A stretch of 64,000 bases of DNA from the IMG/VR virus record IMGVR_UViG_2915331061_000005; one strand, 5' to 3'. The position numbers and the translations under genes are program-made. Origin of the DNA: a virus. Lineage: Duplodnaviria; Heunggongvirae; Uroviricota; Caudoviricetes. The notes beneath the pieces were generated by a model. It was not told where the DNA came from and did no database searches. It was given only the letters and a program-made list of their open reading frames with translations. Below, piece by piece: positions 840 to 64,000 of this stretch (position 1 is the first letter of the stretch; each line of letters begins with the position of its first letter).

Positions 840-1065
840 ATCGATCTTCTTCGTCTATCATGAACTCGTCAGCGTTCCACACTTCTTTGCAATCCAGACA
901 GTATGCTGTCTGACATTCCATCGGACCCGATGTGCTTCTTGTTCTTTTCTTTAGGAGTTTTCCACGCTTTCCAAGTAACTGGTCATAAGAAAACATCCAG
1001 TGATCCGACACTATAATCTGCCCACCGCAAACCGGGCAGGCTTTGCATTCAGTTCCCTCTCTCAT
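808..1065 (-). CDS. Zinc-ribbon/zinc-finger protein
   Basis: CKACPVCG ... CLDCKEVW cysteine pairs. Confidence 0.45.
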   Translation of the reverse strand: MREGTECKACPVCGGQIIVSDHWMFSYDQLLGKRGKLLKKRTRSTSGPMECQTAYCLDCKEVWNADEFMIDEEDRFVDFKDRGNG

Positions 1066-1066
1066 T

Positions 1067-1606
1067 TTATTTTCCCTTTATGATCCAGACCCGGTGTTCG
1101 CCGTATCCTTCCCAGTTCAGTGCATCCTCATGGCTGCCAGAAACAGCCACGTCCAGCTTATTGCCTTGAATGGCTGCACCGCGATCCTGCACAACGCGCA
1201 CGCCAATGTTTTCTATGTACAGAACGGTTCCAAACGGCAGGCTTTCATCTGCTGCAACAGTCAGCCCCGCCGTCACCGGTGCGCCGCTGGCGGTGATTCC
1301 GTGTCCTTCTCCGCAAATGTGCGGGTATTCTTCTGTGCAGTACGCCGTACACAGAAATTCCCCGGCATATTCCTTTGTCAGTCCATCTGGCAGGGCATTT
1401 TCATTGGCGGCAGTCTGTAACTGGTCGATAACTTCTTCATCCTGAATTGCTCTGTCCTGCCAGTTTGCCAGACGGGCGGAATAGATAATACGCTGCCCTT
1501 CCAGATCATCAATGCGTCTCTGCATCACCGCAACTTTTGTGGCATTGACAATTTCCGCCGCAAAGAACAGTACCAGAATCGCCTTTGTTTTCGCTGTCAT
1601 TTCCAA
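1067..1606 (-). CDS. 3D-domain (MltA/YuiC-like) cell-wall binding/lytic protein with N-terminal signal/TM
   Basis: TAYCTEEYPHICGEGHGITASG...VAADESLPFGTVLYIENIGVRVVQDRGAAIQGNKLDV matches the 3D (Asp-rich) domain. Paralog at 55645..56181. Confidence 0.65.
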   Translation of the reverse strand: MEMTAKTKAILVLFFAAEIVNATKVAVMQRRIDDLEGQRIIYSARLANWQDRAIQDEEVIDQLQTAANENALPDGLTKEYAGEFLCTAYCTEEYPHICGEGHGITASGAPVTAGLTVAADESLPFGTVLYIENIGVRVVQDRGAAIQGNKLDVAVSGSHEDALNWEGYGEHRVWIIKGK

Positions 1607-38989: not shown

Positions 38990-39731
38990 CCTCTGTCCCT
39001 CCCTCCGGGTCTACATCCACCTCACCGGTCGCCCGCGTCTTTGCAATGTCAAGGCGTTCCAGTTCCAGAGCGTACCGTTTTTCAAATTCTTCCTGCTGAC
39101 GGATTTGTGTGGTCAGGGAAATAATTCTGCCGGAGACCTTGTTCAGGGCCTCCCGCAGCTGGGTCACTCGAACAAAGGCACTGTCCTTGTTATCCATGAC
39201 CATCTTCTGCACAGCTCCGTCCGCCTGCTTCCCGTCTTTGTCCTTTCCCGGTTTTCGCATATCGGTGATGGATGCAGTGAACAGCTTTTCCGGGTCGCAG
39301 CTTTCATACTCTGCGATCCGTTCCATGATGTGCCGCTGCTGAATCCGAAGCAGCTTCAACTCATAAATGTTGTTCTCGTTTGCACCGGTCGGCATTTGAT
39401 CCAGCCAGTCCCGTTCCTCTTGGTTCAAACGTTCAAGGTGAACCGTGCTATATGCACCGTCCTTCTCTGCGTTGGTGTTTCCGTTCGGCGCACCGCCGCC
39501 GGGATTGCCCTTGGCATTCCTCTTGCCCCGGCTGTTTTTGTTTCCGGGCTGTCCCCCGCGCTTGCGCTCCACCGCATCGTCCCATTGGTCAATGCGTTTC
39601 CAGTTGCGGACGGTTCCGTATGTCACGCCCAGCTTTTCGGCAAGGTCTTTGAGATTTACTTTCTCGCCCGACCGCCGCCGCTTGATGTACTCAGCCTTGG
39701 CGGTGTCGCGCTTGTCGTTCCGCTTCGGCAT
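38970..39731 (-). CDS. Terminase small subunit
   Basis: LGVTYGTVRNWKRIDQWDD...GGQPGNKN motif typical of phage small terminase subunits. Confidence 0.6.
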   Translation of the reverse strand: MPKRNDKRDTAKAEYIKRRRSGEKVNLKDLAEKLGVTYGTVRNWKRIDQWDDAVERKRGGQPGNKNSRGKRNAKGNPGGGAPNGNTNAEKDGAYSTVHLERLNQEERDWLDQMPTGANENNIYELKLLRIQQRHIMERIAEYESCDPEKLFTASITDMRKPGKDKDGKQADGAVQKMVMDNKDSAFVRVTQLREALNKVSGRIISLTTQIRQQEEFEKRYALELERLDIAKTRATGEVDVDPEGGTEDETVHD

Positions 39732-39971
39732 CCGGCATCACTCCTGCACCCCGTTTCCAAAATACACGCAAAAGAAAAAGCCCCACGACGGAATGTCATG
39801 GAGCTTCGCACCTATCACTGTACCGATTATAGCAGGAAAAAGGCATCACGATACATCATTTTGAAAATTTTCTTCAAAAAATCCCCCTAAATTTTTTCAG
39901 ACCCCCTTCTGGGGAAGGGCAAAAATCCGTTTATACCTAGAAAATTTTCGGGCTTTCGGACCCGTAAAGGA

Positions 39972-40550
39972 TTGAAACGCCGCTCCCAGTACCTACGGGC
40001 GCGGTGCGGGCGGGCCGTGGTCATCGGCCCAGCGCCGGGCGGCGGGCGCGGGGTCATTGCAAGAGGCGGCGCGGCGGGCCGGGCAGCGCCAGCGCGGCGG
40101 CGATCCGGCAGGCGGGCGGGGCCAGCGGGCCAGCGATCCGCCCCAAAGCAGGCCGGGCGCGGCGGCGATCTGGCAGGCGCGGCAAGGCGGCGGGCGGTGC
40201 TGGCTGCTGCATGGCTGGCAGTGTGCAGGCGGTGCAGTAGGGCGCGGCGGTCTGCTGTATGCTGGCATAGGGCAGGCGGGCGGCGCTGGCATGGTATGCA
40301 GCAGGCAGGGCGGCGGCGGAATGCCCTGTGCAGCCGGTGCGCGGCGGGCGCTGGCTGCTGCAGGCGGTGCAGTGTGAGCGGCCCGGCAGAGCGGGCAAAA
40401 GGAAAAAAGGCCGGGCGGCGGCGCGTTGTGCGTCGGTCGTCCCGGCCTTTTCTGCTGCTGTTGTCGCCCCGGTGCAGGGCTGTTTTTGCCGTTTGCCGGA
40501 GGGGTCAGATTCTTCACTTAACGGCATATCGCTGCAGTGGTAAGGGTTAA
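39972..40550. repeat. Extremely GC-rich (~75 %) non-coding island with degenerate direct repeats (GCGCGGCGGCGATC(C/T)GGCAGGCG x2, GCTGGCTGCTGCA...GGCGGTGCAGT x2); candidate cos/pac packaging region
   Basis: Immediately upstream of the packaging genes. All ORFs here are Arg/Gly/Pro-rich artefacts. Confidence 0.45.
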
Positions 40551-40604
40551 CTAGGCTATATGCCGCCCTAGTAACCCCCTATAGTCCCCCTTCTTCCCCG
40601 CTTT

Positions 40605-40835
40605 TCACGGTTTCACGGAATCAGCCCCCGGCAAATCGTCCAGCGTCAACGGCTGGCCCTCTTTTGCCATACGTTCCCGCACAGCCTGTAAAATATATCC
40701 TTGCAGACTTTGCCCCGCAACCGCGGCGGCGGCGCGAATCGCTGCCCCCTCTTGCTTGAGCGGCCAAACTGTAATGCGGTCACACTTTGCGTTGTATTTA
40801 TCGTTGTTACGTCTTTTTGCGTCAGATACCGGCAT
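40605..40835 (-). CDS. Ribbon-helix-helix (CopG/Arc-like) DNA-binding protein
   Basis: N-terminal KRRNNDKYNAKCDRITVWPLKQE beta-strand then two helices. Divergent from the repeat-laden promoter. Confidence 0.5.
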   Translation of the reverse strand: MPVSDAKRRNNDKYNAKCDRITVWPLKQEGAAIRAAAAVAGQSLQGYILQAVRERMAKEGQPLTLDDLPGADSVKP

Positions 40836-40886
40836 ATTATTACCCCTTGCTTATTTATTAAATATAATATAGCACAACCCAGCAGA

Positions 40887-41018
40887 CACCGCAACGTGCA
40901 AATTGCACAACACCGCAACGTGCAATTTGTGCAGAACGCCAAAAACACCGCAACGTGCTTGACATGCGACACGTTGCGGTGCTAGAATACAGCCACGGCA
41001 AGCGACACCGCAACGTGC
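40887..41018. repeat. Array of five 13-bp repeats CACCGCAACGTGC (four direct, one inverted) spanning the early promoter
   Basis: Copies at 40887, 40911, 40946, ~40968 (inverted) and 41006. Confidence 0.7.
40959..40988 (+). promoter_or_regulatory. Early promoter (TTGACA, 18 nt, TAGAAT) embedded in the repeat array
   Basis: Consensus -35 and near-consensus -10. One inverted repeat lies in the spacer. Confidence 0.5.
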
Positions 41019-41053: not shown

Positions 41054-41161
41054 ATGAATAAGCACTTTTTCGAGCTGCCAAAAGCCGTCAAGCGTGCCGT
41101 TTGGGCCGCGCTCATGGCTGAATGGGCAAAGAAAAAAGCCGCCAACCGCACCACCGGTTGA
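41054..41161 (+). CDS. Small basic protein (35 aa)
   Basis: RBS GAAAGGAGAAAAG, first gene of the early operon. Confidence 0.35.
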   Translation: MNKHFFELPKAVKRAVWAALMAEWAKKKAANRTTG

Positions 41162-41321
41162 CAGCTCGCAAGATGGGATTTGAACAGCTCATCTTGCAAT
41201 GATTTTACCAGTTTTCGCCGGTAAAGTCAAGCGGACACTTTGCAAGGGCTGCACCGCTCAACAAAGCAACCCATGCCCACCACCCCGCCGGGGTGATTCA
41301 AAAGAAAAGAGGTTTTGAAGT

Positions 41322-41711
41322 ATGACCACATTCGACCGCAAAATAAACCAGATCGCCGCCCGCCACGGGTGGAGCATCGAGAAACAGCCCCGCGCCGCTG
41401 TCCCTTGCTACATCATCGCCGCCCCAACTTATGAGGATACCGGGAAGATCGTTGCCGTTCTGAACCGCTGCAAGGGCTTGCACCATGAAACATTGACCCC
41501 GATTCACTATGAATCGTGGGCGGTCAAGGTGTATGACGCCGGACAGATCGCCGCATATCGGGAACGCGAACGGCAAAAAGCCGCCCTTGTTGATGCTTTC
41601 TATATGGCATTGAAAGCCAACGGCGGCGACCAGAACGCCGCGAAAGCTGCCCAGCGTGAAAAGGCGGTGCAATGGAACGCCGTCGAAGTGTTCAATGAAA
41701 TTTACGCATGA
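41322..41711 (+). CDS. Hypothetical early protein
   Basis: 129-aa ORF with RBS. Confidence 0.45.
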   Translation: MTTFDRKINQIAARHGWSIEKQPRAAVPCYIIAAPTYEDTGKIVAVLNRCKGLHHETLTPIHYESWAVKVYDAGQIAAYRERERQKAALVDAFYMALKANGGDQNAAKAAQREKAVQWNAVEVFNEIYA

Positions 41712-41824
41712 CCCCCGGATACCTTGACGGGCCGCACCACGAAAAGCGACCCGATCCCACGCCCCGACAATAGCCGGGGAAAAGCACGAAAAGCCACACC
41801 ACGAAACGAAAAGGAGAAACAACC

Positions 41825-42169
41825 ATGAAACGAATTTTGACCGCCGCCGCACTTTCCGCCGCGCTGCTGTCCAGCGCACCCCGCGCCGCTGCCGCCTGTC
41901 CCTACAAAGTCGGCCCTTTGGGGCGGTATATCGCCCCGGCCATTGTGCAGGGCATGACCGCCACCGACGACGGGAACGCCGTTGAAGTCTGGTGCACCGA
42001 CGCGCTGGACGGTGACGACTGGTTTTTTACCGTGGACAACGAAACCGAATTGAAGATTTACAGCCGTGTAAATCTGGTGATCGACGCCAACGGCACCCCG
42101 GACGACTTCACCGACGACCGCGTTATTGATGCCCTGTATTGTCACGATTGCGACGGGATCGACGATTGA
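41825..42169 (+). CDS. Secreted small protein (signal peptide, Asp-rich)
   Basis: MKRILTAAALSAALLSSAPRAAAA signal peptide. Confidence 0.5.
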   Translation: MKRILTAAALSAALLSSAPRAAAACPYKVGPLGRYIAPAIVQGMTATDDGNAVEVWCTDALDGDDWFFTVDNETELKIYSRVNLVIDANGTPDDFTDDRVIDALYCHDCDGIDD

Positions 42170-42187
42170 ACGAAAGGAGCGCACAAC

Positions 42188-42400
42188 ATGAAAACCCTTG
42201 AAGAAATCCGCAACGAATGCCGCAACGAAAACCACGCCGCCCGCCGCCTGTTGTCCGCCGGGTTCCGGCTTGAGGGGTGGGACATGAACACGGGGCGGCG
42301 GATCGTCGCCCGCATCACGAACGAGAACACGAACGACGAACAGCGCGCGTTCTACGAGTTTCCCGACTATCAAACCGCCGCCGCTGAACTTCTCGCATGA
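42188..42400 (+). CDS. Hypothetical early protein
   Basis: 70 aa with RBS GAAAGGAG. Confidence 0.4.
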   Translation: MKTLEEIRNECRNENHAARRLLSAGFRLEGWDMNTGRRIVARITNENTNDEQRAFYEFPDYQTAAAELLA

Positions 42401-42504
42401 TCCCCGCCGGATACCTTGACGGGCCGCACCGAAAAGCGACCCGATCCCATCCACCCGGCCCCGCCGGGAAGAACCACAACAAAAATTGAAAGGAAGTATT
42501 TACC

Positions 42505-43446
42505 ATGACGAACAATCAGATCATCCGCAACGAAGCCGCCCGGCTTGACCCTGCCACCCTGCACGCCATCGCCACCGCGCACCACACCCCGGACGAGATC
42601 GCCGCCATTGCCGCCGCTTGCAAGACCACCGACGAGAACGGCAACGAACAGCCCGCCACCGTGGCCGATGTCGAAATCATGCTTGCAGCCGACGAGCTGC
42701 ACACGTTCGACCACTGGAAGAAAGAGGGTAAGAGCGTCAAAAAGGGTGAAAAGCATCTTGTTTGCTGCTACCTCTGGAAGTACACCACGAAGCCCAGCAA
42801 AGAGCAGCGAGAAAAAGCAGCGGCAGAGGGCAAGGAAGCGGCCCCCGATCCGCATTACTACCCCACGAAATCGCACCTGTTCAGTTGCTTACAGGTTGAA
42901 AGCAGCAAGCCCGCCCCGGCTGGCCGGTTTGGATCGACCGCTGCAATCATCGAGTATAACAAGAAGCTGGCAGCCGAACGGAAAGCAGCGAAAGCCGCCG
43001 CCGAAAAGGCAAAGGCCGAAGCCGCCGCCCCGATCATCACCGAAGAACACCACGAGTTGCCGGAACTGGTGCACGCCGATCCGCTTCCCACGAAAAAGGC
43101 CACGAAGCGCACCGCCAAAAAGGCCCCGGCAAAGAAAGCCGAAACGAAACCCGCCGGGCCAGACATGGAAGAGTTGAAAAACGCTTTCGTCAAGAACTAT
43201 TCCCGCCTGTACCAGACCGACGACGACCACGAAAGCGGCGAGTTTTACGACGCCGTGGACAAGTTCGACGAAATGAGCGCCAACAATGCCCAGTTTACCG
43301 CCACCGTCCAGAAGTTCAATAAATACATGGGCGACCTTATCAGCAGTGACCGCGAAGCCGCCGCGTTTGTGATGGCCCTTGACGATCTGGAAAAGGCAAA
43401 GACCCCCGAAATGGTTCCCACCGTGCAGCAGCTTTGCTTTGCATAA
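42505..43446 (+). CDS. Hypothetical early protein with Lys/Ala-rich linker
   Basis: 313 aa. Central KAAKAAAEKAKAEAAAP low-complexity linker. Confidence 0.45.
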   Translation: MTNNQIIRNEAARLDPATLHAIATAHHTPDEIAAIAAACKTTDENGNEQPATVADVEIMLAADELHTFDHWKKEGKSVKKGEKHLVCCYLWKYTTKPSKEQREKAAAEGKEAAPDPHYYPTKSHLFSCLQVESSKPAPAGRFGSTAAIIEYNKKLAAERKAAKAAAEKAKAEAAAPIITEEHHELPELVHADPLPTKKATKRTAKKAPAKKAETKPAGPDMEELKNAFVKNYSRLYQTDDDHESGEFYDAVDKFDEMSANNAQFTATVQKFNKYMGDLISSDREAAAFVMALDDLEKAKTPEMVPTVQQLCFA

Positions 43447-43566
43447 CACGAAACGGAGACCCCAGCAGGGCCGCACCGCTCAAAGCGGCCCCGCCCCACT
43501 TCCCACCGGCACCCCGCCGGGGGATCGTCACGAAACACGAAAAACGAAAACAGGAGGCTTGAATTT

Positions 43567-44052
43567 ATGTCTTGCATGATGCTTTCCCCCGCCCACATCG
43601 CCACCGTTGCGCACGGTCTGGCGTACCTGCTCAATCAATCCGAAATGTGCCAGCTTTCCGCCGCCGACGAATTGCGCGACGCTCTGGGCGCTTGCAGATA
43701 CCCGCACGATTTTCTGTATGACGACCGCCGAATCTACCCCGTTCTGTACCGGCACAACGAAGCCGCGTATGAAGGGCGCTATAAGGCAGAGCCGGACGAA
43801 ACCGACGAAGTGCCAGCCATGCCGGACAATGTGCCGCACCTGCTGCACCGTCTGGACTACAACGAGCATTATTTTCTCGATGCTGATTTCTTCAAATTTC
43901 TGAAGCTGCTTGACTGCTACATTTACCAGTGCGAAGAACAGGCCACGGCAGACACGAATTTACAGAAAGCGCTTGTAAAGACTTCAAACCACTTGTACGC
44001 ATTCGCCGCCCAGCAGAATGCAGCATACAACGCCGCGCCGTGGTGCATCTGA
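43567..44052 (+). CDS. Hypothetical early protein
   Basis: 161 aa with RBS CAGGAGG. Confidence 0.45.
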   Translation: MSCMMLSPAHIATVAHGLAYLLNQSEMCQLSAADELRDALGACRYPHDFLYDDRRIYPVLYRHNEAAYEGRYKAEPDETDEVPAMPDNVPHLLHRLDYNEHYFLDADFFKFLKLLDCYIYQCEEQATADTNLQKALVKTSNHLYAFAAQQNAAYNAAPWCI

Positions 44053-44144
44053 TCCGCGCCGGATACCTTGACGGGCCGCACCGTAAAGCGACCCGATCCC
44101 AGCCGAAAGGCACAACACGAAACGCGAAAAGGAGCAAACGAATT

Positions 44145-45065
44145 ATGACAACATACTATCCCATCAACGAAAATCTGGCCCGTGCTTCCCACGATATGCG
44201 CAGCATGAGCACCTATCCGGACGGCTATGCAACCAGAGAATACCGTGCCAGCGTGGACAAAGCCGCCGCTCTGGTCGAAGAAAAGAAGCAGAAAGTCAGC
44301 CCCTACTATCACGAAAAGCTGGACGCGCTTCTTGACAGCTACGCCCGCCGCCTTGCACAGTGGACGGACGACCACAACCGGAACGGCGCAAGCTGCCCCT
44401 CTGTGCTTGTGTGCGGTGCTGGCAACTTCCCGGTGCGGAAGAAGCAGAAGCAGAACGCCCGCGAGGATACGCTTTGGCACGAATATGAAGAAATCGAAGC
44501 CATCTTGACGAAAATCAAGGCGGTTGGCACCGGCCCCGTTGATCTGGCCGACCCCCACGCCCGCGAACTGCTCACGGATCAGCTGAACAAAGAGCAAGAC
44601 CTTCTCGAATATTGCAAGGGTGCCAATGCCTATTACCGGAAGCACAAAACCTTGCGCGGCTATTCCAACATGAGCGACGCGGCAGCCGACGCGCTCACCA
44701 ACCCGGACGCCTTTTCAATGAGCCTGTACCGCAAGCCCTACGGCGATTTTGAGTTAACCAGTATCCGCGGCAAGATCAAGCGGATTCAGACCCGCCTTGA
44801 CGAACTCGACAAGGTACAGGCCGCCGCTGCATCCGGCCCCGTTGAAGATCAGCACGACGGCTACACCTACCGTGAGAACAACGAAATCATGCGCGTGCAA
44901 TTCATCTTTCCCGGAAAGCCGGACGACGAAACCCGCGCCATGCTCAAAGAGAACGGTTTCCGGTGGGCACCCAGTCAGGGCGCTTGGCAGCGCCAGCTTA
45001 CCGCAAACGCCAAATATGCAGCGCACCGTGTCATGGAGTTTCTGGACGGCAACGAAAACGAATAA
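44145..45065 (+). CDS. Hypothetical early protein
   Basis: Internal start MTTYYPINEN (RBS AAAGGAGCAAACG) of ORF 43929..45065. Confidence 0.45.
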   Translation: MTTYYPINENLARASHDMRSMSTYPDGYATREYRASVDKAAALVEEKKQKVSPYYHEKLDALLDSYARRLAQWTDDHNRNGASCPSVLVCGAGNFPVRKKQKQNAREDTLWHEYEEIEAILTKIKAVGTGPVDLADPHARELLTDQLNKEQDLLEYCKGANAYYRKHKTLRGYSNMSDAAADALTNPDAFSMSLYRKPYGDFELTSIRGKIKRIQTRLDELDKVQAAAASGPVEDQHDGYTYRENNEIMRVQFIFPGKPDDETRAMLKENGFRWAPSQGAWQRQLTANAKYAAHRVMEFLDGNENE

Positions 45066-45171
45066 TAAAAGCGGACACCCCAGCAGGGCCGCACCGATTC
45101 AAAGCGGCCCCGCCCCATCTTCCCGGCATAAATGTCGGGAACATCACGAAAACGAAAAGGAGCTATGAACC

Positions 45172-45429
45172 ATGACAGCCAAACAGCAAAGCACCGAATC
45201 CGGCGGCGGTCTGCGCACCGTCACCCTCACCGCTGACCAGTGGAACACCCTGTATTTCTACCTTCTCACTTCCACGAAGTACCGCAACGGTGAAATTGAA
45301 GCGTGGGAAAGGCTGGCCCTTGAAACGAACGAGGACGGTTCCCCAAAGTTCATCCACGCCGCCGACAATGCGCGTTATCTCCGGGATCAGGAAAAGACGC
45401 TGCACGAAATTGCGCAAAGCATCTGCTAA
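45172..45429 (+). CDS. Hypothetical early protein
   Basis: 85 aa with RBS AAAGGAGC. Confidence 0.4.
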   Translation: MTAKQQSTESGGGLRTVTLTADQWNTLYFYLLTSTKYRNGEIEAWERLALETNEDGSPKFIHAADNARYLRDQEKTLHEIAQSIC

Positions 45430-45532
45430 CAGACCGCTCCGCCGGGGAAAATAGGAGAATTGACTTCATTTTGTAGTCGGTTGAATGCCGATCCACTGCC
45501 CCGCCGGGGTGAATCACGAAAGGACGAAACGA

Positions 45533-45721
45533 ATGTACTACTTCATTTACTGCAAAGGCCCCAACGAAAAGCGCTTCACGCTTTGCAATCCATGGAAAGG
45601 CACACGCGGCATGGGCAAAGTATATGCGCCGCGCTTCCTCAAGGATCAAGCCGACTATGCCGTTGCATGGATGGCCGAGCACAACCCCGGCTTTATCTTC
45701 CAGCGCCGCCCGGCACGCTGA
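45533..45721 (+). CDS. Small hypothetical protein
   Basis: 62 aa, internal start MYYFIYCKG. Confidence 0.3.
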   Translation: MYYFIYCKGPNEKRFTLCNPWKGTRGMGKVYAPRFLKDQADYAVAWMAEHNPGFIFQRRPAR

Positions 45722-45752
45722 ACATCACCACCACGAAAAGGAGCAACGAACC

Positions 45753-46070
45753 ATGACAACCAACGAACGCTTTCTCTCAGTCCTGCACAGGATCACTTCC
45801 TGCCGCCACTTAGCCACCGTCAACATAACGATCTGGAACAGACGCATTGAAGTCCGGCACACCGTTTTCGATGAAATGTACATCCTGCGCAGCTTTCCCC
45901 TGCCCAACACCCACAACGAATATTGCGTCTGCATGGCGGCTGCCTGCCGGTGTCTGTCCGACAAGCTGCTTTCGTGGGCAAGCGAGTACGACCACGGCAA
46001 CGACGTTCTGAACAAGCAGTACGACACTGTGAACAAAGCCTTTCGCAAGCGCTTAGAGGAACAAGAATGA
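45753..46070 (+). CDS. Hypothetical Cys-containing protein
   Basis: Internal start MTTNERFLSV with RBS AAAGGAGCAACG. Confidence 0.4.
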   Translation: MTTNERFLSVLHRITSCRHLATVNITIWNRRIEVRHTVFDEMYILRSFPLPNTHNEYCVCMAAACRCLSDKLLSWASEYDHGNDVLNKQYDTVNKAFRKRLEEQE

Positions 46071-46293
46071 CCCGTGCCCCGGTTCCATGCCGGGGCATCT
46101 TGTGATATACTTTCACTAACGAAATTGGACTTTTCAAGCACGAAAAGTTCAATTCCAGCAACGAATTTGCAAAAAAGGGGGCATTTTTACGAACGAAGTC
46201 GAATTTTTTGCACCTTGGCGTCTGGTTGCCAGTTTTGCCGACGGCACACGCGCCACGTTCGACGGACTGACCGAGGAACAGGCCCACGCCGCA

Positions 46294-46551
46294 ATGGAAG
46301 CTGCCCAGACCGAGCACGGCGACATTGGCTATTGGAACCGTGTCACGGATGTAAACTATGAGGACGGCCAGTATTGCGGCACCCTGCAGGAACCGCCCAC
46401 GGTTCATGTTGTGGATTTTTCCGGGTATGACGGGCCGCTGGACGAAAACGGCTTTCCTGTTGGCCTGCCGAACGAAATCGCCGAGTACATGAAGCAGCAC
46501 GGCGAACCGCCCACCGTTCCGAAAATCATCATCAAGAAAAACGAACCATAA
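46294..46551 (+). CDS. Hypothetical early protein
   Basis: 85-aa ORF, last gene before the terminator. Confidence 0.35.
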   Translation: MEAAQTEHGDIGYWNRVTDVNYEDGQYCGTLQEPPTVHVVDFSGYDGPLDENGFPVGLPNEIAEYMKQHGEPPTVPKIIIKKNEP

Positions 46552-46799: not shown

Positions 46800-47300
46800 T
46801 TAATCGCGCGCGTCATACGCGCGTGAGAGCAGTTCTTCGACCATCGGGACTTCATCCAGCATGGAACCCAGAACGACCAGCGCGAACTTTTCCCACCGCT
46901 GGGCTGTGATCTCTGTTTTTCTCAGTTCGCGGGCTATGGTTTTCCAGCCTTTTTGTAACGACGGATCACTGTAGACATACCGCCCGCACAGGATCGTTTT
47001 GTAACGACTGTTCAGCCGGTCTAATTGCCCCCGGATTGTTGTCTGATCCGCACGGAGAACATCCTGCCGAACACGAAGTTCATTTTCCCGGCGCTGGCAC
47101 TCCACATCATCGGCCAGTTTCACAGCCAGCGACGCGGTACTATCTCCCGGCGTGCTGCCGTGCGGCATACCGTCCATAGCAATGCCCTTGATGGGATTGT
47201 AGCGATCTCGCAGTTCTGCCAGCTCAATGTTGACATCATCAAGCTGCGCTTCAATCCCGCCAAAGTAGCGCAAAATCATTTTCGTTTCTTCTGCCTGCAT
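46800..47300 (-). CDS. Putative transcriptional regulator with C-terminal sigma-70 region-4-like HTH (possible RinA/ArpU-type late activator)
   Basis: C-terminal GWKTIARELRKTEITAQRWEKFALVVLG resembles a sigma region 4 HTH. Assignment tentative. Confidence 0.3.
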   Translation of the reverse strand: MQAEETKMILRYFGGIEAQLDDVNIELAELRDRYNPIKGIAMDGMPHGSTPGDSTASLAVKLADDVECQRRENELRVRQDVLRADQTTIRGQLDRLNSRYKTILCGRYVYSDPSLQKGWKTIARELRKTEITAQRWEKFALVVLGSMLDEVPMVEELLSRAYDARD

Positions 47301-61098: not shown

Positions 61099-61372
61099 GT
61101 TCCTCTCGCCCGGTTCAATGCTTCTTCGGCATCGTCCGGGCGAACTTTGTTTTTGTGGAACAGCCGCACGATGATCTGCGCCAGTTCTTCGCGTACCTTT
61201 TCCCTATACTCCGGTGAAGCCTCTGCCGCTGCCGGGTCATACAAGCGCGGGTACGCTTCCATAAAGGCTTCGCTGTCCAGCAGTTCTTCCATGATCCGCA
61301 GGATCAGGCGACGTTTCAGCTCCGGCGTTTTGTTCAGCGCTTCTACAATGTGTTCAGGTTTCAGCGTCATGC
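61062..61372 (-). CDS. Conserved hypothetical (MTLKPEHIVEALNK...), paralog of 60523..60810
   Basis: Identical N-terminal motif and RBS context. Confidence 0.45.
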
Positions 61373-61599
61373 GCTTCGCCCTCCTGCTTTTCGGGTTCGT
61401 CGCTGCGTGCAAAGAGCTTTTCAATGCTTTCCTCTGCACCCAAAGCCGCCTTGACCTTGATAGCCATTTCCACGCTCATGTCTGAGCCGCCATTCAGTTT
61501 GTAGTACATCGTACTGCGGGAAGTCCCGACTTCTTCCGCCAGTTCTTCTACCGTTTTGCCACTGATACGCAGATACTTTTCAGCCAGCGGATATACCAT
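61354..61599 (-). CDS. Cro-like HTH regulator
   Basis: RISGKTVEELAEEVGTSRSTMYYKLNG HTH. RBS GGAGG. Divergent from the CI-like gene. Confidence 0.55.
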   Translation of the reverse strand: MVYPLAEKYLRISGKTVEELAEEVGTSRSTMYYKLNGGSDMSVEMAIKVKAALGAEESIEKLFARSDEPEKQEGEAHDAET

Positions 61600-61771
61600 T
61601 GCGCCATCCTCCAATCCTAAGTTTCGTATTTGCGACCACTATAGCACTAGAATTAGTATTTGTCAACCGTTTCAATACTATTTTTAGAAAATTCTTTTTA
61701 TTTTCGGATGTTCGGCATTGATTTTTCCTAATTCTAGGACTACAATATAAATAAAGAAGGGAGCCTACACT

Positions 61772-62125
61772 ATGACCAGAGAAGAACTTTTGAAATCCTA
61801 CATCCTGAAACAATATAGGACTGTAAAAGATTTCTCCGTTGCAATCGGATTGCCTTATACAACCATTGACGGTATCCTTCGCCGTGGTGTAATGAATACT
61901 CGCGTCGAAAATATGATCCGCGTATGTCAGTTTCTCGGAATCTCACTGGATGCTCTTGTTGCCGGGCGCATTGAGCCGTATTCTGACAGGCCGTCTTTCT
62001 CCATCGACGATGTATCCGCGCTGGAAAAATATCACAACCTTCCTGCGTCCGATAAAGAAACCGTGGACTTCGTTTTGAACCGTCATGCTCAACGCGCAGA
62101 AAGCGCAGAAACTACCAAAGTGTAA
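61772..62125 (+). CDS. XRE-family HTH repressor (CI-like) of the next prophage
   Basis: TVKDFSVAIGLPYTTIDGILRRG HTH. Unrelated in sequence to the 8185 repressor, which suggests heteroimmunity. Confidence 0.65.
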   Translation: MTREELLKSYILKQYRTVKDFSVAIGLPYTTIDGILRRGVMNTRVENMIRVCQFLGISLDALVAGRIEPYSDRPSFSIDDVSALEKYHNLPASDKETVDFVLNRHAQRAESAETTKV

Positions 62126-62455: not shown

Positions 62456-64000
62456 ATGGCAAAAAGAAAATTCAACAAGGGCGGCGAAGTGCGGCTGGTC
62501 GCCTATTACAGATACAGCGGCGGCAGCGGGCAGACCGAGCAGTCCATTGAGGGCCAGCGCCGGGACTGCGAGACCTACGCCCGCCTGCACAACATGACCA
62601 TTCAGAAAGAATATGTGGATCGCCACATCAGCGGCAAGACCGATGATCGTGCAGCGTTCCAGCAAATGATTACTGACAGCGACAAGGGCGCATTCGATAT
62701 GGTGATTTGCTGGAAAACAGACCGCTTCGCCCGGAACCGCTATGATTCTGCCGTGTACAAGAAACGCCTGCGTGACAACGGCGTTGAGATCGTTTATGCC
62801 GCAGAATCCAATATCGCCGGTGCGGAAGGTATCATCATTGAGGGCGTGATGGAAGCGCTGGCCGAATACTACTCTGCCGAGCTGGCCGAGAAGATGCGCC
62901 GCGGCATGAGAGAAAGTGCCCTCAAGGGGCAGGCCATCAGCCGATGCCGTGCCCTTGGCCTGAAAACGGACGAACACAAACGGTTTGTCATTGATGAAAA
63001 GACCGCTCCCACCGTCCGCTTCATCTTTGAGCATTACGCCGCCGGGGAATCCGCCACCTCTATTGTAGATAAGCTCAACGCCAAAGGTCTGCGTACCAGT
63101 CAGGGCAACCCCTTCAACAAGAGCAGCATTCCCCGGATCATCCAGAACGAAGCCTATCGCGGCGTGTACATCAGCAAATCGTATGACGTGCGCATTGAAG
63201 GAGCCATTCCGGCCATTATCGACGATGAACTTTGGGAGAGGGCACAAACCATGTTGAAACTGAACCGTCAGCTCAAGGCAAAGAATGAACCAAAAGCGGA
63301 CTACATCCTGTCCGGCAAGCTCTACTGCTCCTGTGGTTCCCTCATGCGCGGTATGAGCGGCCACAGTGCCACCGGCGAAGTCTACCGCTACTACACCTGC
63401 CCCAATAAGGACTGCCACCTGCGGAACATCCCGAAGGACGATCTGGAAGGAAAGGTCATGCAGTCCATCGTGGATCACCTCTTGCAGCCGGAATCTATGG
63501 AAGCACTGGCCGAAGCCATGGTCGAGGTGCAAAAGGCCGACGTTGAAAAGCCCAACGCCGAACGTGTAGCCATCGAACAGAGCCTTTCCGATGTCCGCCG
63601 CCGCAGTAAAAACATTTTGGACGCCATTGAAAACGGCACCGCTAATGCGCAGCTGTGCGCCCGTCTGGATGATCTGACCGAACAGGAGCAGACCTTGAAC
63701 TTCCAGCTTTCTTCTCTGGAAAAGGAGAAGCCTGTTGTGTTCACAAAAGAGCAGTACCTTTTCCTGCTGGAACAGTTCTTGATGGAGCCGTCCGAGCGCA
63801 CACCGGAGTATGGTCGCCGTCTTGTTAACACTTTCGTAACAAGTATGGTAGTTAGCGGTCGTGAACTGGTTATCAATTTTAATGTTTCGGACGAAACCGT
63901 TAACAAAAACAAAAAAACATCCCAGACAAACTTACAAAAAGAAAGTTCGTCTGGGATGCGTCTGGTCCGAGTGGCGAGAATCGAACTCACGGCCTCTTGA
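62456..64000 (+). CDS. Large serine recombinase of the next prophage (3' end runs off the window)
   Basis: ~65 % identical to 9302..10912 (VAYYRYSGGSGQTEQSIEGQRRDCETYARLH...). Confidence 0.85.
   Translation: MAKRKFNKGGEVRLVAYYRYSGGSGQTEQSIEGQRRDCETYARLHNMTIQKEYVDRHISGKTDDRAAFQQMITDSDKGAFDMVICWKTDRFARNRYDSAVYKKRLRDNGVEIVYAAESNIAGAEGIIIEGVMEALAEYYSAELAEKMRRGMRESALKGQAISRCRALGLKTDEHKRFVIDEKTAPTVRFIFEHYAAGESATSIVDKLNAKGLRTSQGNPFNKSSIPRIIQNEAYRGVYISKSYDVRIEGAIPAIIDDELWERAQTMLKLNRQLKAKNEPKADYILSGKLYCSCGSLMRGMSGHSATGEVYRYYTCPNKDCHLRNIPKDDLEGKVMQSIVDHLLQPESMEALAEAMVEVQKADVEKPNAERVAIEQSLSDVRRRSKNILDAIENGTANAQLCARLDDLTEQEQTLNFQLSSLEKEKPVVFTKEQYLFLLEQFLMEPSERTPEYGRRLVNTFVTSMVVSGRELVINFNVSDETVNKNKKTSQTNLQKESSSGMRLVRVARIELTAS

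Follow-up and report, generated by a model that had tools for sequence, protein, structure and literature searches.

A probable autoregulated Arc/Mnt-like repressor-operator module on divergent promoters of a Toutatis-like prophage

Among ribbon-helix-helix (RHH) repressors, CopG of plasmid pMV158 acts on a pseudo-symmetric 13-bp element and MetJ on tandem boxes, and in both cases the element overlaps a promoter. Phage P22 has two RHH proteins, Mnt and Arc, each with one roughly 21-bp operator that is bound by a tetramer; the region that encodes them, immI, has been described as a second control region (PMC8022706). The RHH-type ParB protein omega of pSM19035 binds arrays of short repeats in mixed orientation, for which at least four contiguous heptads are needed (PMC9499535). 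Here we analyze a stretch of 64,000 nucleotides from a tailed phage (IMG/VR record IMGVR_UViG_2915331061_000005; hereafter the window), in which five short repeats lie within and around a strong promoter at positions 40887-41018, next to a divergently transcribed RHH gene. Very probably, this locus is an autoregulated Arc/Mnt-like RHH repressor-operator module on back-to-back promoters. The initial annotation of the sequence had pictured it as a second, Arc/Mnt-like switch besides a CI/Cro pair, a view that is strongly supported by repeats that change together with the DNA-reading residues of the RHH protein and that hold fixed positions relative to both promoters.

The window represents a whole Toutatis-like prophage in inverted orientation, and its relatives include FP_Toutatis and Lelie, phages of the gut bacterium Faecalibacterium; over the aligned parts, the region is 88-89% identical to both.

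The repeat array and its two promoters

Four direct copies and one inverted copy of a 13-mer had been reported in the initial annotation. The four direct copies of CACCGCAACGTGC are exact (plus strand, 40887-40899, 40911-40923, 40946-40958, and 41006-41018), whereas the inverted copy at 40969-40981, which reads CACCGCAACGTGT on the minus strand, matches at only 12 of 13 positions. With up to one mismatch allowed, both strands of the 64-kb window contain five matches, all inside these 132 bp (40887-41018), compared with a chance expectation of 0.17 per 64 kb, and none of 100 dinucleotide-preserving shuffles gave five. The search for the 13-mer elsewhere in the genome that had been called for at the outset therefore finds it confined to the array at this stringency, and it is not a genome-wide repeat. 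Two mismatches admit two further copies (29366 and 39570), which are compatible with chance because 2.8 are expected. The five-copy array is thus confirmed as real.

The true repeat unit is a 14-mer, ACAC-CGCAAC-GTGC. On the plus strand, the inverted copy reads ACAC-GTTGCG-GTGC, that is, the 6-bp core is flipped and the outer frame is unchanged. Successive sites are 24, 35, 23, and 37 bp apart from center to center, with gaps of 10-24 bp between them. The five sites (O1 to O5), the operon promoter, the RHH gene, and its putative promoter (P_RHH) are arranged as follows:

40605..40835, minus strand: gene for the RHH (Arc-like) repressor, 76 amino acids; β-strand residues 18-26, specificity positions R20, T22, and W24
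40866..40874, minus strand: putative extended -10 element of P_RHH (TGCTATATT on the minus strand), with its -35 region TTGCGG at 40889-40894 inside O1
40887..40899, plus strand: O1, operator copy 1, overlapping the -35 region of P_RHH; predicted autoregulatory site
40911..40923, plus strand: O2, operator copy 2, between both promoters
40946..40958, plus strand: O3, operator copy 3, its last base adjoining the -35 hexamer of the operon promoter
40959..40988, plus strand: operon promoter, with TTGACA at 40959-40964, an 18-nt spacer, TG at 40980-81, and TAGAAT at 40983-40988
40969..40981, minus strand: O4, operator copy 4, with inverted core, filling the promoter spacer and ending two bases before the -10 hexamer
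41006..41018, plus strand: O5, operator copy 5, in the transcribed leader at about +11..+23

The operon promoter agrees with the consensus at 11 of 12 positions, carries an additional TG (TGcTAGAAT), and points away from the RHH gene from inside the repeat array; its transcription start is predicted near 40995. The earlier description of copies that flank and invade a TTGACA/TAGAAT promoter holds, as O3 extends up to the -35 hexamer and O4 lies in the spacer. That this promoter drives an "early operon" holds in part: a near-consensus promoter does stand ahead of an operon, but its early timing is something we only infer. Because it is near-consensus with a 17-18-nt spacer, the promoter would be expected to need repression rather than activation.

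The putative -10 element of P_RHH lies at a constant offset (-93..-85 from the -35 hexamer of the operon promoter) in the classes examined; a script recognized it as TGnTAnnnT in classes A-E, H, and I, and classes F, G, J, and K show TATAAT there when read by eye. A stricter promoter scan did not pick it up. As O1 lies over the -35 region of P_RHH, negative autoregulation is predicted.

The RHH protein and its co-variation with the sites

The divergent gene had been read from the start as encoding an RHH protein, and the open reading frame (ORF), profile searches, and predicted fold all agree with this assignment. In a search of the PDB with a family profile built from 25 homologues, P22 Arc was the best match (E 1.2e-3), and one of the 25 family members scanned matches the Pfam Arc family (PF03869, E 8.9e-6). 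The window protein itself yields sub-threshold Pfam matches to ParD (17.4 bits), TacA1 (16.9 bits), and NikA-like (15.7 bits), all of which are RHH families. An AlphaFold2 monomer model (predicted local distance difference test score 81) consists of a helix (residues 5-17), an extended segment (18-26), and two further helices (27-40 and 44-58), and thus contains the β-α-α topology of RHH proteins. The structures matched by this model in a Foldseek search of the PDB are nearly all RHH proteins, led by Arc (1myl_A, target TM-score 0.90, root-mean-square deviation 0.9 Å over 44 residues), with ParG and CopG-DNA complexes also among them.

In the family profile alignment, R20, T22, and W24 align with Gln9, Asn11, and Arg13 of Arc, which are the base-contacting β-sheet residues in the Arc-operator structure (PDB 1par). 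Across 120 homologues, no positions of the folded region are more variable than 20, 22, and 24 (entropy 2.25, 1.88, and 1.59 bits, respectively). I21 and P25 do not vary, and position 23 is always V, L, or I, so that the strand alternates between conserved inward-facing and variable DNA-facing residues. The protein ends in an acidic, proline-rich tail. Past the 3' end of the gene lies a hairpin with a T-run (at about 40405-40452), so that the gene is monocistronic.

The 3' end of the RHH gene carries direct repeats of TTCCGTG(A/G)AA on the minus strand (40596-40625 in the window). A 15-nt unit found in relatives, which encodes GGDSV, is missing in the window, so that the protein has 76 rather than 81 residues. 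Similar repeats, CCACGGAAAA, occur in Lelie-type loci, but outside the coding region.

For comparison across phages, the conserved first large gene of the operon served as an anchor, giving 22 virome loci and one locus from a Faecalibacterium intestinale genome, to which seven contigs with distinct RHH variants and 80 virome loci found by RHH alignment were added. Some loci carry an extra first gene, and promoters were located by a promoter-anchored search. Every Toutatis-like locus has one strong promoter and, about 120-133 nt upstream of the -35 hexamer, an RHH gene that points the other way; the promoter spacer is 17-18 nt in the classes examined. Among about 80 array-bearing loci there are at least 14 repeat classes, which correspond one-to-one with the sequence of the RHH β-strand, with no contradictory locus. 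The classes, named by the β-strand sequence, are:

DRITVW: operator ACACCGCAACGTGC; window
TQINLK: operator GCACGGTACAGGGC; Toutatis
KSIRI: operator GCATGAWTCATGC; Lelie, a perfect palindrome
DSIQIR: operator GCATTCCGTCATGC
AQINLK: operator GCATGGTACAATGC
DYISLR: operator ACACGCAACAGTGC
DAITIR: operator GCACGTCAACGTGC
DYINVR and DYINIR: operator GCATTCAACCGTGC
DVINVR: operator GCACCGTTGAGTGC
DSITIR: operator AATCGTCTACGGT
DMIRLQ: operator GCATAGGCTCATGC
DRIVIQ: operator CACGGCAACGTG
DQIMIK: operator CCCGTTAACGGG
DFIAIK: operator CACGTTAACGTG

In the automated set, DRITVW occurs with ACACCGCAACGTGC in 16 of 16 loci and TQINLK with GCACGGTA(C/T)AGGGC in 14 of 14, and arrays were also found on inspection in the borderline loci. 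Most classes share the frame [G/A]CA[C/T]-N6-[A/G]TGC around a variable N6 core. The two classes with the residue triplet Q-N-K have the same core, GGTACA, despite different frames and N-termini, and a DYINVR homologue in an unrelated genomic context has CACGGTTGA half-sites upstream of its gene. DRIVIQ appeared to be an exception with two operators; this was dismissed, as O1 and O2 of L090/L092 have the operator of L109/L111, and O3 and O4 have a two-base variant.

Site positions are constant to a few base pairs across classes (taking the first base of the -35 hexamer as the reference: O1 at ~-73..-60, O2 at -48..-36, O3 at -13..-1, O4 at +10..+22, and O5 at +47..+59), and the orientation at a given position varies between classes. 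O5 is present in four of the 11 tabulated classes (A, B, F, and G) and in the L109/L111 class. The overlap of O3 and O4 with core promoter elements holds in nearly all classes, the exceptions being L091 and L109/L111.

The exchange between the window and Toutatis is confined to a cassette of ~290 bp (about 40728-41018), on either side of which the two are 94-99% identical. Besides the sites, it includes just the N-terminal half of the RHH protein. Inside the cassette, identity drops to 23-62% in the operators and 47% in RHH codons 18-36, and the -35 hexamer is the same in both phages. As the flanks are 94-99% identical and the small ORF downstream of the promoter is 98% identical between the two phages, the RHH protein is the only protein that co-varies with the sites.

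Conserved DNA other than the operators is found around O2:

40903..40910, strand not assigned: conserved non-operator motif TTGCACAA, a partial inverse of TTTGTGCA across O2
40926..40945, strand not assigned: conserved block TTTGTGCA(A)AAcGTAGAAAGC-like (TTTGTGCAAAAcGTAGAAAGC-like), just 5' of O3

The TTTGTG of the second block is kept in 11 of 11 classes. In several classes, TTGCACAA and TTTGTGCA form an inverted repeat that brackets O2, and they are retained within the swapped cassette. The block may be the site of a second conserved factor or may be UP-element-like. The possibility that TTTGTGCA is a site common to other control regions was rejected, as it has just three matches across the window, is not enriched, and does not occur in the CI/Cro-like intergenic region described below.

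The controlled operon and the genome end

The promoter precedes a run of plus-strand genes with the following features:

41054..46551, plus strand: controlled operon of roughly 5.5 kb, its far end placed by the last plus-strand ORF
41231-41286, 41715-41766, 42407-42456, 43453-43505, 44059-44108, and 45071-45124, plus strand: six RAGATH-5 motifs, candidate ribozymes (Rfam RF02685)

The operon genes encode a 35-residue ORF, gp47-like and gp46-like products, a 70-residue ORF, a 313-residue ArdC-N-like protein, a 161-residue ORF, a 306-residue protein labeled "primase" in PHROG, and small ORFs. The ArdC N-terminal domain is a single-stranded DNA-binding, anti-restriction domain. The 313-residue protein (42505-43446, plus strand) matches it with 21.4 bits (cut-off 22.6) and has a weak anti-restriction match in PHROG, which would fit a takeover or anti-defense role for the operon. 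No homologue of an Ant-like antirepressor was detected in the operon with Pfam and PHROG.

The six RAGATH-5 motifs score 58-68 bits (gathering threshold 50) and are the sole Rfam matches in the window. Five of them begin 4-7 nt past the preceding stop codon, and the distance from each motif to the following start codon is 36-62 nt; all eight related array loci that were tested have RAGATH-5 in the orientation of the operon. In locus L031, the motif after the small ORF is replaced by a twister-sister ribozyme (1009-1091, minus strand; 70.6 bits, threshold 34). Twister-sister is a proven self-cleaving ribozyme, and its occurrence in the same slot suggests that RAGATH-5 does the same job. Our search of a literature library, which covered the Toutatis and Lelie papers, found no publication on RAGATH-5 and none on the RHH/operator locus.

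In the annotation of Toutatis, the promoter heads a leftward block, gp48 to gp36, that is antiparallel to all other genes and lies between the annotated antiterminator Q and the RHH gene. All genes of the block are annotated as hypothetical except one, annotated as a primase. Beyond the RHH gene, which is oriented as the late genes are, toward cos and terS, come a spacer and then the terminase genes. The homologue of the Q-annotated gene is at 46803-47300 on the minus strand of the window, convergent with the operon, and its product has no Pfam match.

The genome end can be placed from Lelie, which has cos ends with 5' overhangs and whose record was rearranged to begin at cos (PMC11792537):

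39962..39963, strand not assigned: equivalent of the Lelie cos junction, where both ends of the Lelie record map with 96-99.8% identity

This position, given solely by the published Lelie analysis and the mapping of the record ends, is 231 nt upstream of terS, 642 nt past the RHH stop codon, and about 1.0 kb from the promoter. Metagenomic contig ends were also considered as markers of the terminus and were discarded: 13 IMG/VR contigs stop upstream of the RHH gene, and of the nine that could be mapped, eight end in 40101-40616 and one at 39799, none of them at cos. Such scattered ends point to assembly breaks in the GC-rich spacer rather than to true termini; the spacer itself (39963-40400) differs between phages.

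A lambda gpA-type TerL and a lambda-family portal are present in the window. In lambda, packaging starts at the terminase-proximal end, and the other end is the first to leave the capsid. With a lambda-type terminase and portal, the operon promoter end is, by analogy, probably the first to enter the cell, and the operon with it.

Between cos and terS, a hairpin with a T-run (39807-39777) lies no more than about 20 nt past an extended -10 element, TGCTATAAT (39833-39825, minus strand), and directly ahead of the ATG of terS, the small terminase gene, at 39731. This unit looks like a candidate late promoter and terminator and a possible target of an antiterminator. That P_RHH might be the late promoter was considered and judged unlikely in view of this separate extended -10 element and terminator.

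The right end of the window encodes a large serine recombinase (62456-64000), through which the phage integrates. Beside it, about 20 kb from the array, are divergent genes of the helix-turn-helix (HTH) type HTH_3 (61772-62125, plus strand, and 61357-61614, minus strand), which may be a separate CI/Cro-like pair; the label is tentative because their Pfam HTH_3 matches are below threshold. Their intergenic region (61600-61771) contains the inverted repeats CTAGAATTAG and CTAATTCTAG, which are unrelated to the 13-mer and presumably are the operators of the primary immunity switch.

Mechanism, alternatives, and comparison with known systems

In the mechanism that we propose, one RHH dimer would bind each site, a near-palindromic frame, [G/A]CA[C/T]...[A/G]TGC, around an asymmetric 6-bp core. 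Recognition of the core, in the major groove, would fall to the two-stranded β-sheet (R20, T22, and W24), and that of the frame to a conserved, basic N-terminal segment (residues 5-17), which is predicted to be helical; the pseudo-symmetry of the frame would explain why the core is free to take either orientation. Repressor at O3 and O4 would occupy the spacer of this strong sigma-70-type promoter and enclose its -35 hexamer from both sides, which would exclude RNA polymerase, and O5 would be an additional block in the leader. Occupancy of O1 over the -35 region of P_RHH would give negative autoregulation. The module might silence the ~5.5-kb operon in the lysogen, shut it off after a burst upon infection, or both.

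Several observations weigh against this reading. The window protein falls below every Pfam gathering threshold, and the Foldseek E-values are weak (0.3), as the domain is small. The site spacings are not all in helical phase, so that cooperation between dimers is hard to picture. Class L109/L111 lacks O3, some classes lack O5, and O3 of L091 is away from the -35 hexamer. About 25 RHH homologues lie in co-directional operons, with coding sequence directly upstream and no array. The locus counts are inflated by common descent, and the independent evidence amounts to about 14 class-level swaps. The retention of TTTGTGCA and TTGCACAA within the cassette hints at a second factor. Finally, the array, the promoter, the RHH fold, and the co-variation are shown here, whereas we infer the binding, its stoichiometry, the transcription starts, the sign of regulation, the timing of the module, and its role in immunity. 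The array-less homologues (L032, L059-L066, L093-L097, and L115, from other phage groups), together with L071, where one simple inverted pair of class H half-sites is all that precedes the RHH gene, indicate that the RHH family is broader than the Toutatis-type module.

Other functions for such an array can be envisioned. The initial annotation had offered an iteron-type origin as its alternative, in which replication would start at repeats bound by an initiator, and a short repeat in several intergenic copies, next to 45 bp of AT-rich sequence, would suit it. That stretch, however, corresponds to the -10 element and ribosome-binding site of the RHH gene. The sites are irregularly spaced, their orientation is mixed and, at fixed positions, varies with the class, and in the classes examined they keep a fixed register with the -35 and -10 hexamers of two promoters. 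Moreover, no Rep gene adjoins the sites, and their co-varying neighbor is a 76-residue RHH protein and not a Rep protein; the replication initiator annotated in Toutatis is ~9 kb away in another operon. We consider an origin very improbable and have abandoned it. A partition centromere of the omega/ParG type, whose RHH centromere-binding protein also autoregulates the par operon, is just as improbable: omega-type proteins do bind repeats of mixed orientation (PMC9499535) and ParG is among the Foldseek matches, but the Pfam scan of 13 operon ORFs found no ParA-type ATPase or other partition gene, the phage integrates by a large serine recombinase, and the sites are 13-14 bp long and 10-24 bp apart, whereas omega heptads are contiguous (PMC9499535). 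Least credible of all is an autoregulated type II toxin-antitoxin antitoxin. The sub-threshold ParD and TacA1 matches and the UniRef name DUF1778 would be in keeping with an antitoxin, but there is no co-transcribed toxin, as only the hairpin with a T-run, the GC-rich spacer, and cos lie past the RHH stop codon. The operators also cover the outward promoter of the 5.5-kb operon, which would be superfluous for toxin-antitoxin autoregulation, and the top structural and profile match is Arc, not an antitoxin.

A closer competitor, which we still regard as unlikely, keeps the repressor and its operators but makes the module solely a timer of the lytic cycle, either as an Arc-like shut-off or as a switch that also controls late or terminase expression, with no part in lysogeny or immunity. 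The RHH gene does point to cos and terS in the orientation of the late genes, and P22 Arc has exactly this shut-off role. Against this, a prophage with a consensus-type promoter needs a resident repressor, and the sites of no other regulator are seen at this promoter; a separate candidate late promoter and terminator lie between cos and terS; and at least 14 specificities among near-identical phages are a signature of immunity-type selection that would not be obvious for an internal timer. As judged from sequence comparison, this diversification on near-identical backbones favors an immunity-type role over a timer alone. As near-identical phages exchange the operators and the N-terminal half of the RHH protein as one cassette, the autoregulated repressor-operator module probably behaves as a second, immI-like immunity determinant.

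It is possible, though we lean toward doubting it, that the module is a second, independently diversifying immunity determinant that gates a first-in operon cut by RAGATH-5, with a three-residue recognition code. If this were true, the operon would encode takeover or anti-defense functions, the ArdC-N-like protein being one of them; a resident prophage would silence it in those incoming phages alone that share its RHH class, driving the at least 14 classes; the mRNA would be cut into single-gene pieces by RAGATH-5; and the classes would represent a natural code of the RHH β-sheet, with three residues for each 6-bp core.

The switch logic is classical, and the locus belongs to a known type of control region. 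What it adds is a series of at least 14 natural RHH/operator pairs of fixed geometry that differ mainly at three β-strand residues and a 6-bp core, and which could be a data set for the DNA-recognition code of RHH proteins and a source of orthogonal repressor/promoter parts that work in Firmicutes. Human gut viromes commonly contain Toutatis-like Faecalibacterium prophages, for which the locus represents a second control region that could set which related phages superinfect a lysogen. In addition, the RAGATH-5 operon gains a defined promoter and regulator, and the twister-sister ribozyme in the same slot makes the role of RAGATH-5 testable.

Of the systems compared, P22 immI with Mnt/Arc and Pant/Pmnt is similar in having small RHH repressors, divergent promoters, and operators over promoter elements, and in being a second region far from the CI/Cro-type immunity region, by or in the late-structural block (PMC8022706); both regions also vary among related phages. 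By contrast, one RHH protein here serves 4-5 dispersed sites of 13-14 bp, no Ant-like antirepressor is identified in the operon, and the module targets 5.5 kb of genes next to cos that are interspersed with RAGATH-5 motifs. In sequence, the protein resembles Arc only marginally (E 1e-3 for the family profile). Omega (pSM19035/inc18) is likewise an RHH dimer acting on repeats, with functional direct and inverted arrangements and autoregulation (PMC9499535), but its units are 7 bp and contiguous, whereas those described here are 13-14 bp with 10-24-bp gaps, pinned to promoters, and without a ParA partner or a partition role.

CopG and MetJ are also RHH repressors on promoter-overlapping elements, but theirs is a single contiguous operator with cooperative stacking of dimers, and we know of no multi-class swapping of specificity for either. 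The lambdoid imm regions share the swapping of operators and the DNA-reading part of the repressor as a mosaic cassette between near-identical phages, and also the use of multiple operators for divergent promoters, one of them autoregulatory; their CI and Cro have the HTH fold, whereas the candidate HTH pair here is separate, beside the integrase. Overall, the locus differs from all of these systems in combining one RHH protein and 4-5 dispersed sites on two promoters with many specificity classes and an operon interspersed with candidate ribozyme motifs at a genome end.

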